Position numbers and translations under genes: made by a program. A stretch of 60,934 nucleotides of DNA, counting the filler, from Myxococcota bacterium (GTDB taxonomy: Bacteria > Myxococcota_C > UBA6777), in assembly GCA_023150835.1 (NCBI GenBank). It is 3 parts of 3 records of this genome, joined end to end, with 100 filler letters (N's around TTAATTAATTAA, not from the genome) between each part and the next. Parts side by side here need not be neighbours in the genome. Positions count along the whole stretch, not along the records: positions 1 to 30,856 come from JAKLKB010000131.1; 2 more parts are not named here. One strand, 5' to 3'. The notes under the pieces were generated by a model. That model ran no database searches. It saw only the letters and a list, made by a program, of their open reading frames with translations, and had not been told where the DNA came from. Positions 2,768-30,956 of the stretch are shown piece after piece; positions within the stretch are counted from its first letter, which is position 1; each line of letters starts with the position of its first letter.

Positions 2768-3133
2768 ATCGTCTTTGCTTTGAACCCACTCTACAAGCCG
2801 AAGACTTCGATGACGACACTCTCGGTCGCGCACTCGACGCTCTATTCGAGGAAAATCCCACGACGATCTTTGCTCAAGTTGCGTCTCACACCCTTCGTAC
2901 CGCAGGAATCGAGCATCACTTCTTTCACCTCGACACCACCTCGAAAGCTTTCACGGCGAAGACAAGCCCTCGAACGAACCAAACGAAGATGAACCCAAAG
3001 TAATCTCGTTGTGTCACGGGTTTCCAAGGACAACCATCCTGAACTCAAACAAGCGGTGGTCTCGTTGATTTGCTCGGGTCAAAGCTCCTTGCCGACGTGG
3101 TTTGAAGCGCTCGACGGCAATTATTCGGACAAA
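2768..3133 (+). pseudogene. IS1634-family transposase fragment, frameshifted
   Basis: FDDDTLGRALD, HLDTTS, SKDNHPELKQ and LDGNYSDK motifs spread over different frames; no intact ORF. Confidence 0.75.
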
Positions 3134-3268
3134 TTATCCGTTGATAGAGCTAAAAAAACGTGAGCCCGAGCAAGAAAAACGTTCCCCCCACCCCGCCGAT
3201 GCGAGTTCAACCGCGCCGCTCTCCTCTTGGGGGACGCAACGACGGCACCACATAGATGAAGTCGCGCC

Positions 3269-4135
3269 CTAGCGACGGATGATCGAGATGTTAAAGATCC
3301 CACGTTGCCGCGCCCGAAAGATCATGATCACGACGCGTTGAGCGCCTTTGCGAAAGTTGAACACAAACTCGAACTGTTCAAAGACCTTGCGGGAGCGGCC
3401 TTCTGCGAGATCGCGAAAGCGCCCCTCGAATTCTTGAACACGGGTACACGGAGCGACTTCTTGAAAGAAGTTTCGCCCGATAACCCGCTCTTTTGGCAGC
3501 CCGACCATCCGCGACTCGGTATCGTTGTAGCCCACCACACGGCCTCTTGCGTCAAGCTGGATCACTCCGTAAGGCAAATCATCCAATTGTTCGTTGCTCA
3601 ACTGATTCACAAAACCGATATCCACGTTCATCGAAGAGGGCATCCCCGCCATCGGAGCTTGAGCAGGCCCTTGGAACGCATAGCCGGGAGGCAAGCCCAC
3701 GCCCAAAGCACCTTCGATCGCCTCCGAAGAAAGCGGAACCGTCGCAACAGCGCGTGGCGTCTGTGACACCCAGCGCGTCTCGTTTCCTGAGGGTTCCGCA
3801 TAAGGCGGATAAGGCGAAGACGGGCGCAGGCTTGAAGAGACAGGAGACAAGGCATCACGTGCAAAGGCCGCACGATTGGGTGGATCCAGTTCAGAAACAC
3901 TTTGGAATGCCTTGCTGTCTAAGGATTCAAGCGGCATCAACGGTGCGCGGATATGATCGGGAAATTCTTGAAACAACGAAACCAACGCATCTTGCGCCGC
4001 AAGCGCATCATCGTCTTGGTTTTCGCGCAACGTCGCTTCGATCTGCCCCAATTGGCGCAAACGCTCTCGGACTTCTTCTTTGAGCTTTTGAACGATCTGC
4101 ATCGTCGGTGAAACAGAAGCCCCTGATGGCGGCAT
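3269..4135 (-). CDS. PYP-domain (PAS) protein with N-terminal helical domain and Pro/Ser-rich linker
   Basis: LDDLPYGVIQLDARGRVVGYNDTE...VIGRNFFQEVAPCT; Tyr42, Glu46 and Cys69 equivalents present; GAGGAG RBS before the ATG at 4135. Confidence 0.85.
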   Translation of the reverse strand: MPPSGASVSPTMQIVQKLKEEVRERLRQLGQIEATLRENQDDDALAAQDALVSLFQEFPDHIRAPLMPLESLDSKAFQSVSELDPPNRAAFARDALSPVSSSLRPSSPYPPYAEPSGNETRWVSQTPRAVATVPLSSEAIEGALGVGLPPGYAFQGPAQAPMAGMPSSMNVDIGFVNQLSNEQLDDLPYGVIQLDARGRVVGYNDTESRMVGLPKERVIGRNFFQEVAPCTRVQEFEGRFRDLAEGRSRKVFEQFEFVFNFRKGAQRVVIMIFRARQRGIFNISIIRR

Positions 4136-4256
4136 GCTCGACTCCTCAACAAAAACATCGCCCCCTCCGAAAGAAGGTGGCGATCGCGTGGATTCTTTTG
4201 ATTCACGACGGGACGCGGATTCTTTTGATTCACACAAAATCAAGAAGCGGCTTCTC

Positions 4257-5318
4257 TCACGATTGAGCAAGAGGTTGAAACGCCGAAGGCTGCGTATCCA
4301 GATGCCATCGAAGCGCCGAAGACAGCGCATCGACCGCACGGACTTCGTGGCTTGTTGCACCAACGAAACTCAACGGGCTTTGGGTGTCATTTCCCAAAGG
4401 ACGCACAAACATCGCCTTGCCATCGAGACTTTGTGCAGACAGCAAAAAGGTCTCTAACTCGATCCCTCGATTCCAAACCCGCTGCGCGATACACCGCACC
4501 AGCGGCATCAAAAACAGAAAATCAGGTAGATGTTTCGTGTACGTCCCCAACAGCAACACACCATCCGCATCATAAACGCCCATCTCTTGGACGGGATAGC
4601 GCTGTAGCCATGCTTGAATCTTCGATTGCAACGGCAAAGCGTAGGTTCCAATCAACGAGGACGCCTTGGCGCGGGAAGAGAGAGGCACCACACCCTGCAC
4701 CGCAGCCGGCGGAGCAACGAGCACTCCGCCATCTTTGGGAGAGATCTCACCACCAAGACGCAGGGCTGCCCGTCCTATCGCCATCCAAGGGATCTCCGCT
4801 CCACCACACACCAACACATACAACGGCGATCCATCCAAACGCAGTATGTGGATCCCTTGGCCTGCAAACTCTTGCGTTAGCACACGCACCGGCCCCTGAA
4901 ACACACGCTCCACCGCAGACCACCCACGATGCAAGATCGCCGCAAGCGCCGCACTTTGCTCACATAACCCGCGATCTCCCACAGCATCCAAAGGCGCGCC
5001 TTACGCATCGACCAACACCACCGCATCGGCTTGCGCTTCGAGTTGAAGTTGCACCAATGCTTGATGCGTCTGCGTACGTTGCGACCAAGCCAGCGGTGGC
5101 TGCGATGGCGGTTGCAGATCTAGCCCCACCCACCGCAAAAGACCTTGCGCTTCGAGTAGCTGCCCTTGAATGGCTTCGGCTTTTGCACGAAACACCGCAG
5201 CATCCGACTCCATGCGCTTTTTCTTCTGTTTGTGCTGCACCCAAAGAAAGGTGGTTGTCATCGCCCAAAACAACGCCAAGACCGCCAAGACGCTCCACAC
5301 CATTTCACTGCCGCTCAT
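4257..5318 (-). pseudogene. Membrane-anchored tandem Roadblock/LC7-like protein split by an in-frame TAA (5001-5003)
   Basis: ORFs 5001-5318 and 4257-4991 are in the same frame and read ...ADAVVLVDA*GAPLDAVG...; N-terminal TM helix; second similar motif MGVYDADGVLL. Confidence 0.6.
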
Positions 5319-5386
5319 CGCTATCTCCCAGAAATGCTACTCCCACGCAGGATATCTCTCTTTTGCGTGGTGCTTCTTCGATCGAT

Positions 5387-5615
5387 TACGATATCCGAGT
5401 GATACGAAGTCCGAATGATCTGTGATCGAAGGAGAGCGCCCAGACGCCCGATTGTTGGGCAGCCACACCTGGCTGCCCCTACATTTTTACGATCACACTA
5501 CGGGCGGATCTCGTATGATGCGTTTGCGTAGGATAGTACACAGACGCCCTATTCTTGGGCACCCGCACCTGTCTGCCCCTACGCTTTGCGATCACACTAC
5601 GGGCGGATCTCGTAT
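5387..5615. repeat. REP-containing MITE-like element, family A (two tandem units)
   Basis: Ends TACGATATCCG...CGGATCTCGTA; internal GGGCAGCCACACCTGGCTGCCCCTAC hairpin (GTAG-type REP on -); homologs near 8740-8812, 27055-27143, 32684-32794 and 49518-49815. Confidence 0.7.
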
Positions 5616-5635
5616 CACTTGTTCGCCAACAACCC

Positions 5636-5750
5636 CCGTGTTCGCGTCGGTTCAAGCGAGAGCGTCATCGTGTTGAAAAACAGAGATCGTCTCGCCAAAT
5701 ACGGAGGCATAGGGGCTGTGGCCCCTTGTGGGGTGTGGGGTGAAACCCCA
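5636..5750 (+). repeat. ~115-nt structured intergenic element, copy 1
   Basis: CCGTGTT...AATACGG long stem followed by two GC-rich hairpins ending GGGGTGAAACCCCA. Confidence 0.75.
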
Positions 5751-5796
5751 CCAAAACAAACCAACCGCGTCACTTCGAGAACAAGCCACGCCTCGA

Positions 5797-6168
5797 TCAC
5801 TCGCCTTTGAGTTGCTTTGCACACTCGCGCAGATCGTGAAGAATCAACCCCAACGCCGCCCGATCACGCGCAAGCGCCGCCAAGATCGTTCCATCCCCCA
5901 GATCTCGCCCAACCAGCACGCCTTGCGAAGCTTCGATCAAAAAGCTCTCCAACATACCGCGCCCCAACTCTTGGGCCGAACGATCCGCCACATCCGCCAC
6001 GCCAACCACCAACGGAGCGATCACATCCGACAACGCCGTCTCTCTAGGCGAGTGCGCACGGATCTGTCCGTCTCCTTCGATCAACGCCAACATCTCGATA
6101 TCTGGCGAGGCTTGGCATACCTGATCCAACAACAATTGAGCTTCGTATCGCTGCATAGACGCCACCAT
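5797..6168 (-). CDS. Roadblock/LC7 (MglB-like) domain protein
   Basis: LALIEGDGQIRA, ADRSAQELGRGMLESFLIEASQG, AALGLILHDLRECAKQL pattern; ~120 aa; start 6168 or 6156. Confidence 0.85.
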   Translation of the reverse strand: MVASMQRYEAQLLLDQVCQASPDIEMLALIEGDGQIRAHSPRETALSDVIAPLVVGVADVADRSAQELGRGMLESFLIEASQGVLVGRDLGDGTILAALARDRAALGLILHDLRECAKQLKGE

Positions 6169-6314
6169 CTTTTTGTCTCCCAACAAGGCCAACAAAACAT
6201 CGAAAGAAAAAGCCCTCTGGCATTTGGACTGTTGGCACGGCGCGCTTTCGTGCAACGCCGATAAGATGCAAGCCCACATCAAAACGTTGCGGGTGATGGA
6301 CTCCGAAAGTACGG

Positions 6315-6722
6315 TCAAGGGTTGGATTCTTCGGCGGGATCTTTAAAGTCGGGAGGGAGATCGCGGAGGGGAGAGGCTTTGGTGGTTTCAAACTGGAGCA
6401 GTTGAACTTGTCCAGCGGGCGCGCCACGGGCTTTTTGGACGTATTGGCGTTGCGTGTAATGAACGTCCACACGGCCACCCTCGCGACTGCGGCTAAAGAA
6501 AACGGCGAGCGCAGCGGCTTCTTTGAGGGTGGTTTTGGGCAAGCGGCTACATTGATCGGGGTTTTGAACGATCACATGCGAGCCAGAAGTAGGCGCGATA
6601 TGCAGCCAAAAATCGTGGGGTTTTGCGATCTTAAAGGTGAGCAGATCGTTGTCTCGGGCATTTTTCCCTACAAGGATCGTCCACCCATCCGAAGAAGTAT
6701 ACGAGCGGTAAGATTCAGCCAT
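6315..6722 (-). CDS. NFACT-R (DUF814) RNA-binding domain protein
   Basis: ILVGKNARDNDLLT, DFWLH...GSHV, AAALAVFFS, VHYTQRQYVQK motifs. Confidence 0.9.
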   Translation of the reverse strand: MAESYRSYTSSDGWTILVGKNARDNDLLTFKIAKPHDFWLHIAPTSGSHVIVQNPDQCSRLPKTTLKEAAALAVFFSRSREGGRVDVHYTQRQYVQKARGAPAGQVQLLQFETTKASPLRDLPPDFKDPAEESNP

Positions 6723-6806
6723 CGGGATCCTCATCGATATGACGGGGTGAGAGGAGTGACGCAATCGGCAAAAAAATCGATTTCTCGGAACTTATTGACA
6801 ACCCCC

Positions 6807-6921
6807 CCGTGTTCTCGGCCTTTCAGGCGACAGAGTCGTTGGCTTGAAAAACGACGCTCTCTTCGCCGACACGGGGTCAAGGGAGCCGCGCTCCCTTGCG
6901 GGGTTATGGGGCAGCGCCCCA
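6807..6921 (+). repeat. ~115-nt structured intergenic element, copy 2
   Basis: CCGTGTT...GACACGG stem, CAAGGGAGC..GCTCCCTTG and TGGGGCAGCGCCCCA hairpins. Confidence 0.75.
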
Positions 6922-9063: not shown

Positions 9064-10890
9064 TCAATCGCCACCGCCGCCGGGTACATCGCCTTGATAG
9101 AGAGAGTCGAGCAGGTCTTGGTAGCGCTTCATCACGTTGTTGCGCTTGATGCTCATCTTGGGGGTCATCATATCGTTTTCGATCGTAAAGCCTTCGTCGA
9201 GCAAAGCCCATTTTTTGGGCCGTTCGTAGCCTTTGAATTCGGCGCTGTGCTTTTTCAACTCTTCGCCGATCAAAGCGTGTGTACGGGGATCTTTGTTGAT
9301 CTCAGCCAAGGTCTCGCCCGGGACACCGTTTTGCTTGGCCCATGATTTGATGGCTGCTTCGTCGGGGTACACCAACACGACGTTGTAGAGCTTGTTAAAG
9401 CCATACAGGAAGACTTGGTCGATATAACCGCTGAGTTTGAGCAGTTCTTCGAGCGGCGAAGGCACCACATACTTGCCGTTTTCGAGCTTGTATTGTTCTT
9501 TGACACGGCCTGTGATCTTGATAAAGCCCTCAGGATCGATCGAACCCATATCACCTGTGCGAAAAGCGCGTTTGCCGTCCATATCGAAGATCACTTTGGC
9601 CGTATCTTCGGGGTGGTTGTGGTAGCCTTGCATAATGTTCGGCCCGACCACCACGATCTCCCCTTCTTGGCCTTGGGGTAGCTTTTTGCCTTCATCGTTG
9701 CAGATGTAGATCTGCACGCCCGGGATCGGCTTTCCGATCGTGCCGATTTTACGGGCTTGTGGCGAGTTGGCCGACGCGATCGGCGATGTCTCGGTCAAAC
9801 CGTAGCCTTCAAACACCAAGATGCCCACGTTGTCGATGAACATCGCCACTTCACGAGAAAGTGCTGCGCCTCCCGAGAAAGCGTACTTGAGGCGGCCCCC
9901 AAAGCGCGCTTTGACCTTGGAAAACACCAGCTTGTCAAAAAACTTGTACTGTGCATCAAGGAATGCGCTTTTCTTGCCTTGTTCAGCCAATTGACGACGC
10001 TTTTCCGCAACCTTCAAACCTTTTGTAAACAGAAAACGTGCAACCGCCGAACCTGCCGCCATCTTCTTGTTGAGGCCATCGTAGATGCGGTTAAAGATGC
10101 GTGGGACCGCAAACAACAAGGTCGGTTTGACCTCGCCAAAGTTGTCCATCAACGTGGACACACTCTCGGCGATGCCCATCGATGCGCCGCAACTGAGAAG
10201 CACATGCAACTCCACCGTTTGACCAAACGAGTGCGCCCAAGGCAAAAAGCTCAAGCTGCGGTCGTTTTGATCCATCGGAAAGAAACCGTGTACTGCGTTG
10301 ACGTTGGAGATGATGTTGCCGTGTGAGAGGATCACGCCTTTGGGTTTGCCCGTGGTTCCCGATGTGTAGATCAATCCCGCCGTTTCTTCTTCGGTGGGAT
10401 AGATCGGTGGGACGGGAGAAGCCGCGCCTTTCTTCAAGTGCCCTGCGTACGAATAGGCCGCACTTTCGGGTGCTTCAAAGCTGACGATGTGCTGAAGACC
10501 CTTGATCTCTTGGAGAAAAGACTTGGTCTTTTCGTAGATCGCTTCTTTGGCCACGAGCAGCACCTTGGCCCCAGAGTCTTCGACGATATATTTCCAATCT
10601 TTCGGCAGTTGCGACTCATACATCGGTACATAGTGCGCAGCCAAACCATACGTTGCGTACGCTGCCACCGCCCATTCCACACGATTGTCCGCGATCACCG
10701 CAACCTTGTCACCGCGTTTCACCCCAAGCAAGGCCAACGCAGCACGAAATTTGTCCACATCTTGACCGAATTCTTCGTGGGTCATCCACTGATACGCGCC
10801 GTTTTTCTTGGTCCCAAACAACAAGTTCTTTGCGTACCGTTGGCGGGCTTTCACTTGCATATCCACAAGCGAAGAAAAATTCTCAGCCAT
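9064..10890 (-). CDS. Long-chain fatty acid--CoA ligase
   Basis: IYTSGTTGKPKGV, EGYGLTETSP, FRTGDMG, ITGRVKE. Confidence 0.93.
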   Translation of the reverse strand: MAENFSSLVDMQVKARQRYAKNLLFGTKKNGAYQWMTHEEFGQDVDKFRAALALLGVKRGDKVAVIADNRVEWAVAAYATYGLAAHYVPMYESQLPKDWKYIVEDSGAKVLLVAKEAIYEKTKSFLQEIKGLQHIVSFEAPESAAYSYAGHLKKGAASPVPPIYPTEEETAGLIYTSGTTGKPKGVILSHGNIISNVNAVHGFFPMDQNDRSLSFLPWAHSFGQTVELHVLLSCGASMGIAESVSTLMDNFGEVKPTLLFAVPRIFNRIYDGLNKKMAAGSAVARFLFTKGLKVAEKRRQLAEQGKKSAFLDAQYKFFDKLVFSKVKARFGGRLKYAFSGGAALSREVAMFIDNVGILVFEGYGLTETSPIASANSPQARKIGTIGKPIPGVQIYICNDEGKKLPQGQEGEIVVVGPNIMQGYHNHPEDTAKVIFDMDGKRAFRTGDMGSIDPEGFIKITGRVKEQYKLENGKYVVPSPLEELLKLSGYIDQVFLYGFNKLYNVVLVYPDEAAIKSWAKQNGVPGETLAEINKDPRTHALIGEELKKHSAEFKGYERPKKWALLDEGFTIENDMMTPKMSIKRNNVMKRYQDLLDSLYQGDVPGGGGD

Positions 10891-11475
10891 CGCTCTCTCC
10901 TCAAATGTAACGAAAGACTGCTTGTGCCGACGCGTACGCCCGCTCCTGCGCAGCGCACACCCCTCAAACAGCAAAAATGTTTCTTATCAGCGCTGCAACC
11001 ACCTAGGCAGCTATGCCCTCTCAAGCCCTTCTAGGGTCCCGAGATATCGCCCCTTTGTGGATGCGCATTGCAGGCTTAGCAGATGCCCATCCGAAAATCA
11101 AGCCATCGCCCTGCTTTTGTTTCAACGCCTACTGAAAATTCGCTTGACAACAGGAACCTCTGCGTTGTATCTCTGTCCCCCTAAAAATGCGTCGTTTGGA
11201 TCACACGATCCTTGCCATCCACGCAAACACCCTTTGCACAACGCACACGACGCACACCAAATCGAGATCAGACTCCACATCTTAGACCTGTGGCGTTCTC
11301 CTCGTCACAAGGCCCTTTCATGTTTCGCGCAGGTTTCTTCTCTGCGGCTGGAGAATCGACCTACCTCAATCGCGAGATCATCCGTCAAGCCTTGCTGCTT
11401 CACCTTGCAAACACAAACTATCCTTTTGACTTTCTTGCGCAACATCGCGCAAAACGATTCTTTGGAGGTTCCCTC

Positions 11476-30856: not shown

Positions 30857-30956
30857 NNNNNNNNNNNNNNNNNNNNNNNNNNNNNNNNNNNNNNNNNNNN
30901 TTAATTAATTAANNNNNNNNNNNNNNNNNNNNNNNNNNNNNNNNNNNNNNNNNNNN
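30857..30956. other. Artificial contig linker (N44-TTAATTAATTAA-N44)
   Basis: All-frame stop linker inside an N run. Confidence 0.98.

Follow-up and report, generated by a model that had tools for sequence, protein, structure and literature searches.

A conserved gene cassette joining two Roadblock proteins and a photoactive yellow protein-like sensor in a Myxococcota bacterium and its relatives

The window analysed here is a whole stretch of 60,934 nucleotides (filler included) from assembly GCA_023150835.1 of a Myxococcota bacterium (GTDB lineage Myxococcota_C; UBA6777). The system in question is a trio of genes spanning 3269-6168 on the minus strand, with the stop codon of a gene similar to photoactive yellow protein (PYP) at one end and the start codon of a Roadblock gene at the other. 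An earlier note on this DNA, made from the sequence alone, described the three genes as co-oriented and indeed all of them lie on the minus strand. The window is split by runs of N at 30857-30956 and 50014-50113, and only 1-30856 corresponds to the genome contig C72. The genome is 93% complete, and the host phylum comprises in GTDB six species genomes only, distributed in one family and three genera. The three genes and the residue on which most of the discussion turns are as follows:

5797-6168, minus strand: gene 1, single Roadblock/LC7 protein of 123 amino acids (ATG at 6168-6166; match to PF03259)
4257-5318, minus strand: gene 2, predicted membrane helix, coiled coil and two Roadblock-like domains, 353 codons (translation, homologues and model)
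3269-4135, minus strand: gene 3, predicted helix, disordered Pro/Ser-rich linker and PYP-type PAS domain, 288 amino acids (TIGR02373, PDB alignments and AlphaFold2)
3446-3448, minus strand: TGT codon of Cys230 of gene 3, aligned with Cys69, through which PYP binds p-coumaric acid as a thioester (Cys in 59 of 60 loci)

Gene 3 encodes the putative sensor and its ATG is preceded, 6 nt upstream, by GAGGAG. The best NCBIfam match of the product is TIGR02373 (89.9 bits, E 1.3e-25), under the equivalog cut-off of 143.05, and its closest solved relatives by sequence are the PYP domain of Ppr from Rhodocista centenaria (1mzu, E 2.3e-20) and the PYP of Halorhodospira halophila. In the AlphaFold2 model the protein comprises a helix at residues 10-56 (4108-3968), a low-confidence region at 57-170 and, at 171-288 (3625-3272), a PAS domain with block means of 82-95 in the predicted local distance difference test (pLDDT). 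The top 40 Foldseek matches listed are all PYP, the Ppr domain or PYP-derived FAST proteins; the best of them reach E values of about 1e-10 and template modelling (TM) scores of 0.70-0.79 on the target, whereas non-PYP PAS domains appear from E 5e-6, that is 10,000-fold worse than PYP. The predicted fold is thus that of a PYP-type PAS domain.

In a gap-free alignment with PYP, Y203, E207 and C230 (in the motif VAPCT) correspond to Tyr42, Glu46 and Cys69, and the positions of Thr50 and Arg52 are occupied by V211 and L213, two departures from the canonical pocket; the reading of these five positions in the earlier note is borne out. The triad is invariant across 37 aligned homologues of gene 3. 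What the clade of gene 3 has in common with PYP is the PAS fold, the best match in both sequence and structure, and the residues Tyr42, Glu46, Phe62, Ala67, Pro68, Cys69 and Phe96. It differs in that the domain is C-terminal, preceded by a helix and about 110 residues of linker, in having Val or Ala for Thr50, Leu for Arg52 and no Met100, in the score of gene 3 below the TIGR02373 cut-off and in the lack of tal and pcl genes, which were found neither among the neighbours nor in the genome. A word-indexed protein search identified 157 homologues; the 120 listed are of 183-326 amino acids and those with names belong mostly to Myxococcota. Among fused PYP-like forms of 505-2000 amino acids only two Ppr-type phytochrome kinases were identified, with no Roadblock fusion. 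A quick tree of PYP domains places the window next to metagenomic relatives and, beyond these, an Archangium metagenome-assembled genome, in rows mostly of Myxococcota; support for this grouping is weak, no starred branch containing it.

Gene 2, the middle gene, opens with a hydrophobic helix and then KQKKKR, and its product matches no Pfam or NCBIfam family over cut-off. Intact homologues are P0123 (353 amino acids, 92% identity), P0124 and P0125. The AlphaFold2 model of P0123, built with 44 sequences (mean pLDDT 87.9, predicted TM score 0.78), contains a long helix at residues 3-63 and two alpha-beta-beta-alpha-beta-beta-beta-alpha domains at 78-187 and 225-347. Its best Foldseek match in the PDB is MglB of Myxococcus xanthus (6hjm; E 3.7e-6, TM 0.70-0.77 on the target), followed by other Roadblock proteins and then by weaker matches to multi-longin guanine nucleotide exchange factor (GEF) complexes (E about 1e-4). 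The Roadblock profile of gene 1, compared by hhalign with the first domain of gene 2, gives a probability of 68.5% and E 4.6e-5. Gene 2 is accordingly modelled, through its intact homologue, as a protein of Roadblock fold, and since the best fold match is MglB and the model has two domains, the earlier description of a transmembrane segment with tandem Roadblock-like domains is correct. The family of this protein comprises 91 representatives (E <= 1e-30) in 1.84 billion cluster representatives, and no Pfam domain over cut-off was identified in any of the 14 members scanned. In this way a Pfam-less family of membrane-anchored tandem-Roadblock proteins is defined.

Gene 1 narrowly passes the gathering cut-off of PF03259 (Robl_LC7), with 24.3 bits for a threshold of 23; a longer open reading frame (ORF) of 173 amino acids scores 23.1 bits. 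The same family is matched by 39 of the 44 aligned members of the gene 1 family, where the motif R63-x3-E67-x-G69-x-G71 occupies invariant columns. The best PDB matches of the gene 1 profile are 7f8m (an Asgard Roadblock protein, 1.1e-15), 9jue, 9hef (Rv3364c) and 3leq (CvnB5). Free Roadblock proteins normally dimerise with other Roadblock domains.

The conservation of the trio was assessed in a scan with one genome per species, in which 417 loci encode a relative of gene 3; the counts that follow use the best 80 of these 417. The architecture of gene 3 is shared by 60 loci (L005-L064) and is similar in L083, and the other 19 (L065-L082 and L084) are mostly different PYP types. Judged from record titles, the carriers are mostly Myxococcota. 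With the Roadblock protein of the window alone, phmmer identified in 53 of the 80 loci a homologue that lies next to the PYP-like gene and on the same strand, and a profile built from these matches added L045. Five of the 60 loci (L038, L040, L044, L059 and L064) have too little flank to be judged; in 53 of the remaining 55 a Roadblock gene flanks the PYP-like gene, upstream in 51 (at 1.3-2.3 kb) and downstream in 2. Among the 19 loci of other architecture, three of them with little upstream flank (L067, L078 and L084), no Roadblock gene was found beside the PYP gene, and L083 has one. Of the 56 loci that could be assessed for the middle gene, 55 have it, and 15 of these lie outside the set from which its profile was built; L047 has one domain only and L017 nothing. 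The trio is a conserved cassette, and since the arrangement is kept in relatives, the objection foreseen in the earlier note, that Roadblock and PYP genes would not stay together, clearly fails.

The junctions within the cassette are tight in the relatives. Between the Roadblock and the middle gene the median distance in 51 relatives is -7 nt, and 34 of the 51 loci show a distance of -4 nt between the middle and the PYP-like gene, so that overlaps of 4-7 nt are usual; these figures are approximate because starts were set by a simple heuristic rule. In L041 and L048 the order is permuted (PYP, then Roadblock, then the middle gene) and all three genes are kept. The sensor of L048 has at its N-terminus a sub-threshold match to Robl_LC7 (17.2 bits) in place of the helix. 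The single indication for the putative Roadblock-sensor fusion P0095 is a sub-threshold Pfam match, and when the Roadblock profile was compared with it by hhalign its N-terminus was left unaligned (3.5% probability). All-against-all clustering found no fourth conserved gene family around the cassette. A search of metagenomes for close relatives gave 4 loci, all distant.

In addition, a set of loci from Sorangium genomes (L068-L074, L077 and L079-L081) encodes a second, different PYP-type protein, in which about 200-215 more residues come after the PAS domain. This protein has a conserved ten-genome neighbourhood of its own, without Roadblock genes.

Few photoreceptors have been studied as thoroughly in biophysics as PYP. 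How the single-domain PYPs pass their signal downstream is nevertheless described as still unknown in the latest family-wide survey (Xing, Gumerov & Zhulin 2022, PMC9664959). Clade A of that survey is, with PYP itself, the closest known system to gene 3. In its Data Set S3, members of the gene 3 type with 200-290 amino acids are flagged Y/E/C, and one row puts a roadblock/LC7 protein two genes upstream of a 267-amino acid PYP homologue of Bradymonadales; the data set was searched by term, and further such rows may stand under 'hypothetical protein'. The terms roadblock, MglB and Robl do not occur in the main text as searched. Putative PYP genes occur in some myxobacteria, as stated in PMC11832031. 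A full-text literature search found no paper discussing the pairing of PYP and Roadblock proteins, nor, in the literature searched, any report of chromophore binding by a member of the gene 3 type, in agreement with the remark of the earlier note that the module was not recognised as one described.

The interpretation preferred here, with a confidence a little above even, is that the trio is a self-contained signalling cassette in which a PYP-type sensor sits on a Roadblock scaffold and responds to light or to a hydroxycinnamate. It is supported by the family assignments, the predicted folds, the synteny, the tight junctions in relatives and the conservation of the triad; the model would further entail a physical complex, a chromophore, a light response and an output. 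Gene 2 would tether two Roadblock-like domains to the membrane on its cytoplasmic side, gene 1 would contribute a free Roadblock protein and gene 3 would supply the PYP-type PAS sensor on a long flexible linker behind the N-terminal helix. This helix may dock the sensor onto the Roadblock platform, and a change in the sensor, with a Cys-bound hydroxycinnamate photoisomerising as it does in PYP, might then alter what the platform binds. The output partner would lie outside the cassette, a small GTPase being the obvious candidate by analogy only. What such a cassette offers is a large PYP subgroup, mostly of Myxococcota, tied to two Roadblock proteins, and with it specific and cloneable candidate partners and a testable model. 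The ties are a conserved and often translationally coupled order, a permutation that keeps the trio and one weak fusion. Roadblock scaffolds would thereby be linked to sensory input, and a trio kept in dozens of soil and sludge bacteria is a concrete candidate for the long-sought signalling partner of PYP.

Several observations weigh against this interpretation, some concerning the cassette as a unit and others its chromophore. Among the first, no Roadblock gene was found within 6 kb at L017 and L047, and the clustered loci show neither a GTPase gene nor any other output gene linked with the cassette. A search with the middle-gene profile in 151 genomes of the class of one carrier, 12 candidates being scored per genome, gave 5 matches, a low count that would fit either a patchy cassette or an insensitive search. 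Parts of each of the three genes are covered by RNA-library contigs that agree fully with the window, a point in favour of the cassette, and one RNA-library contig spans 3959-4226; against it, none bridges a gene junction, and DNA carry-over is possible. Among the second, clade position 50 is occupied by Ala in 32 loci, Val in 22, Thr in 3, Ser in 2 and Gly in 1, position 52 by Leu in 49, Val in 5, Phe in 4, Met in 1 and Tyr in 1 and never by Arg, and position 100 is never Met in the 60 loci. No tyrosine ammonia-lyase (TAL) was found in the genome, where the only PF00221 protein is HutH (632.9 bits for a cut-off of 539), nor a coumarate-CoA ligase (pCL) of the TIGR02372 type, the best score being 37 bits for a cut-off of 334.7. 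Two complete carrier genomes have HutH as their only ammonia-lyase, and none of five other carriers has a TIGR02372 ligase over cut-off.

These results extend to the genome the earlier observation, which holds, that no TAL, pCL or MglA is recognisable in the window; the wider search for tal, pcl and mglA suggested there located an mglB-mglA pair on another contig. Since the genome is 93% complete, the absence of TAL and ligase is not proven, and three of the five other carriers have sub-threshold ammonia-lyase paralogues that could still be TALs. In view of the missing enzymes in the genome, of HutH alone in two carriers and of the ligase in none of five, a classical self-made p-coumaroyl chromophore is therefore unsupported. 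Among the neighbours of Cys69-bearing PYP genes TAL occurs in at least 10% and pCL in at least 30%, according to the survey (Xing et al. 2022, PMC9664959), and with rates this low in accepted PYPs the absence of nearby enzymes is therefore common. The genome-wide absence is a real gap all the same, and an exogenous hydroxycinnamate loaded by a generic ligase would be the simplest way out. Light input to the cassette is unproven.

The same gap is an argument for a chemical report in place of a light report, in which the PAS domain would sense an exogenous phenolic acid or the redox state through the conserved Cys/Tyr/Glu pocket, or would be loaded only in the presence of p-coumarate of plant origin. 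The loss of Arg52 in all loci and the rarity of Thr50 (3 of 60) point in this direction, as does the origin of the source runs: the labels of all 20 runs that contain the stretch name sludge or bioreactor metagenomes, from habitats presumed to be largely dark. On the other side, the full set of p-coumaroyl-binding residues is strongly conserved, with Y42, E46, F62, A67, C69 and F96 each in 59 of the 60 loci and P68 in all 60. The T50V and R52Q variants of PYP keep their chromophore. The PDB contains PYP entries for both substitutions, as judged by title. The infrequency of TAL and pCL neighbours even for accepted PYPs also counts against a chemical sensor, which is regarded as unlikely.

A ligase of another kind does lie in the window. 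The AMP-ligase of 636 amino acids at 9064-10974 was considered as the chromophore ligase and rejected: it matches models of long-chain fatty-acid CoA ligases, all below their cut-offs. Nor was it retained as an enzyme of the cassette, as it is not kept beside the cassette in relatives.

The next question is whether the Roadblock pair acts on MglA, as an MglB-like GTPase-activating protein (GAP) or GEF module through which light would feed the polarity switch for gliding reversals. A single canonical mglB-mglA pair is present in the genome, on contig C42 and not beside the cassette, with no further paralogues of either gene by tblastn at E 1e-3. This pair would suit such a module, as would the MglA-family genes identified in four of five further carriers, the predominance of Myxococcota among the carriers by record title and the fact that MglB of M. 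xanthus comes first among the fold matches of the middle protein. However, the profile of gene 1 matches the Asgard Roadblock, Rv3364c and CvnB5 at E values from 1e-15 to 6e-7 and MglB only at about 0.007, so at the level of sequence gene 1 resembles the generic Robl/CvnB proteins more than MglB. Against the MglB of its own genome it gives 18 bits by BLASTP, and it has no match to the NCBIfam MglB model NF052242, on which the true MglB of the genome scores 82.7 bits; neither this match nor adjacency to mglA, the two marks of an MglB, applies to gene 1. No GTPase gene is linked to the cassette, as noted above, and in the fifth carrier no MglA match was found at E 1e-10. Of the label "Roadblock/MglB-like" in the earlier note, then, the Roadblock identity stands, through PF03259 and the folds, and a close kinship of gene 1 with MglB is unsupported. 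With MglA in four of five carriers and the weak likeness of gene 1 to MglB, a GTPase output is therefore possible but unsupported, and a polarity switch of this kind is regarded as doubtful.

Compared with the MglB, MglC and RomY proteins of M. xanthus, the cassette shares the Roadblock fold, with MglB at the top of the structural matches of the middle protein, but it is not beside mglA, its sequence similarity to MglB is weak, its middle protein is membrane-anchored with two domains per chain and it has a sensor gene that the mgl system lacks. The actinobacterial conservons (the kinase-like CvnA, the Roadblock protein CvnB, the DUF742 protein CvnC and the GTPase CvnD) share with it a membrane-associated sensor part and a Roadblock operon, and CvnB5 (3leq) and Rv3364c (9hef) belong to the solved structures that match gene 1 best. 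Unlike the conservons, the cassette has no CvnC-like, CvnD-like or kinase-like gene and its sensor is a PYP-type PAS domain, so it is not counted as one of them. In eukaryotes, Ragulator (LAMTOR2/3), Mon1-Ccz1, CPLANE and BLOC-3 have several Roadblock or longin domains on a membrane-tethered platform; here the likeness (E about 1e-4, whole-chain TM 0.12-0.25) would be one of analogy only. As a separate observation, the organism, although its phylum is so small, has a canonical mglB-mglA pair and a cassette that elsewhere is found mostly in Myxococcota.

A bolder version of the preferred cassette can be advanced as a tentative and rather improbable idea. In it the cassette would be a native, perhaps ancestral, pathway of PYP, in which the Roadblock platform controls a Ras-like GTPase such as MglA and polarity or motility is regulated by light. 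If true, this would be the first bacterial pathway from a photoreceptor to a small GTPase and would name a partner of PYP. The ancestral reading would also place the cassette in the phylum where PYP has been proposed to have arisen, and the platform could be seen as a bacterial counterpart of the Ragulator-type scaffolds.

The copy of the cassette in this genome has the following features:

5332-5796, no strand assigned: inserted dispersed repeats between genes 1 and 2, families D1-D3 and I1, direct and inverted (repeat family noted over 5332-5827)
5001-5003, minus strand: premature TAA at codon 106 of gene 2 (VVLVDA*GAPLD), found by translation; polymorphic
4187-4233: pair of 20-nt direct repeats of family D4 (CGTGGATTCTTTTGATTCAC-like, 95% identical, 27 nt apart) within the 121 nt that precede gene 3

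The gap between genes 1 and 2 is of 478 nt and consists of repeats, namely two direct copies of about 100 nt and a second type that recurs at 6804-6867, which confirms the earlier statement that only repeat elements separate these genes. With the 400 nt at 5400-5800 as query, blastn gave 1528 matches on 215 of the 239 contigs of the genome, and in four metagenome runs the contig depth over the dispersed repeats is of hundreds to thousands. The repeat family is very abundant and is formed by short units with hairpin-forming cores. The pair of 20-nt repeats upstream of gene 3 may be an operator, a promoter or a regulator binding site, as a candidate from its sequence. A scan of 3000-6900 for promoters and terminators gave counts close to those of shuffled sequence.

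The TAA divides gene 2 of the window into two ORFs of 105 and 244 amino acids. The earlier note had treated the middle gene as a single gene; its architecture holds, but not its intactness, the in-frame stop having been overlooked. In run X2, from another study, a contig covering 3100-5439 has a single difference, A>G at 5003, which restores CAA (Gln), and P0123, P0124 and P0125 carry Gln in the stop column. The TAA of the window recurs in a DNA contig of run X8 (4582-5433) and in an RNA-library contig of run X16 (4976-5223). With CAA in X2, TAA in X8 and X16 and Gln in the homologues, the nonsense allele is therefore real and polymorphic.

A second lesion was identified in the genome of a sister species of the same genus (G002, contig C406, equal to L086), where a deletion of 1251 nt corresponds to 3363-4613 of the window. 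With it the second Roadblock-like domain and the greater part of the sensor gene are lost, and at its junction, with an overlap of about 6 nt, the first two thirds of the middle gene are joined to the 30 final codons of the PYP-like gene. The Roadblock protein of this genome matches that of the window in sequence, and its gap between genes 1 and 2 is one repeat unit shorter. From the repeats, the 121-nt gap and the nonsense allele, the cassette in the genome of the window is loosened and probably failing. The loss of a light sensor in sludge and bioreactor habitats would make sense, as a speculation, and the nonsense allele and the deletion in these sludge-dwelling relatives amount to a small natural experiment on the loss of the system.

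It is conceivable, but very doubtful, that gene 2 survives the TAA, by restart at a TTG at 4991 or by readthrough, and that the pieces reassemble into a working cassette. In the model the stop would fall in the beta1-beta2 hairpin turn of the first Roadblock-like domain, between strands 99-103 and 109-114, a TTG-started ORF in the same frame begins at 4991, three codons past the stop, and the TAA allele is present in contigs from two further studies, one of them an RNA library. No ribosome-binding site is visible before 4991, however, the relatives carry Gln in the stop column and the sister genome, without 1251 nt of the cassette, fits a relaxed selection.

As for the surroundings of the cassette, a Pfam scan of its neighbours identified an NFACT-R protein, a dehydrogenase and a GST. 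The first is a stand-alone protein of 149 amino acids made up of this RNA-binding domain alone (6315-6764, minus strand; PF05670, 58 bits), encoded directly upstream of the Roadblock gene. NFACT-R is the C-terminal part of ribosome-rescue proteins of the RqcH/FbpA type, and in other loci the 149-amino acid gene is not linked to the cassette. Downstream, at 341-987 and 2158-2766 on the plus strand, are a two-gene pair and a nucleotidyltransferase, the latter with a weak AbiEii/DUF2204 match of 21.8 bits, under cut-off. The second product of the pair resembles, by eye, a PIN/VapC toxin.

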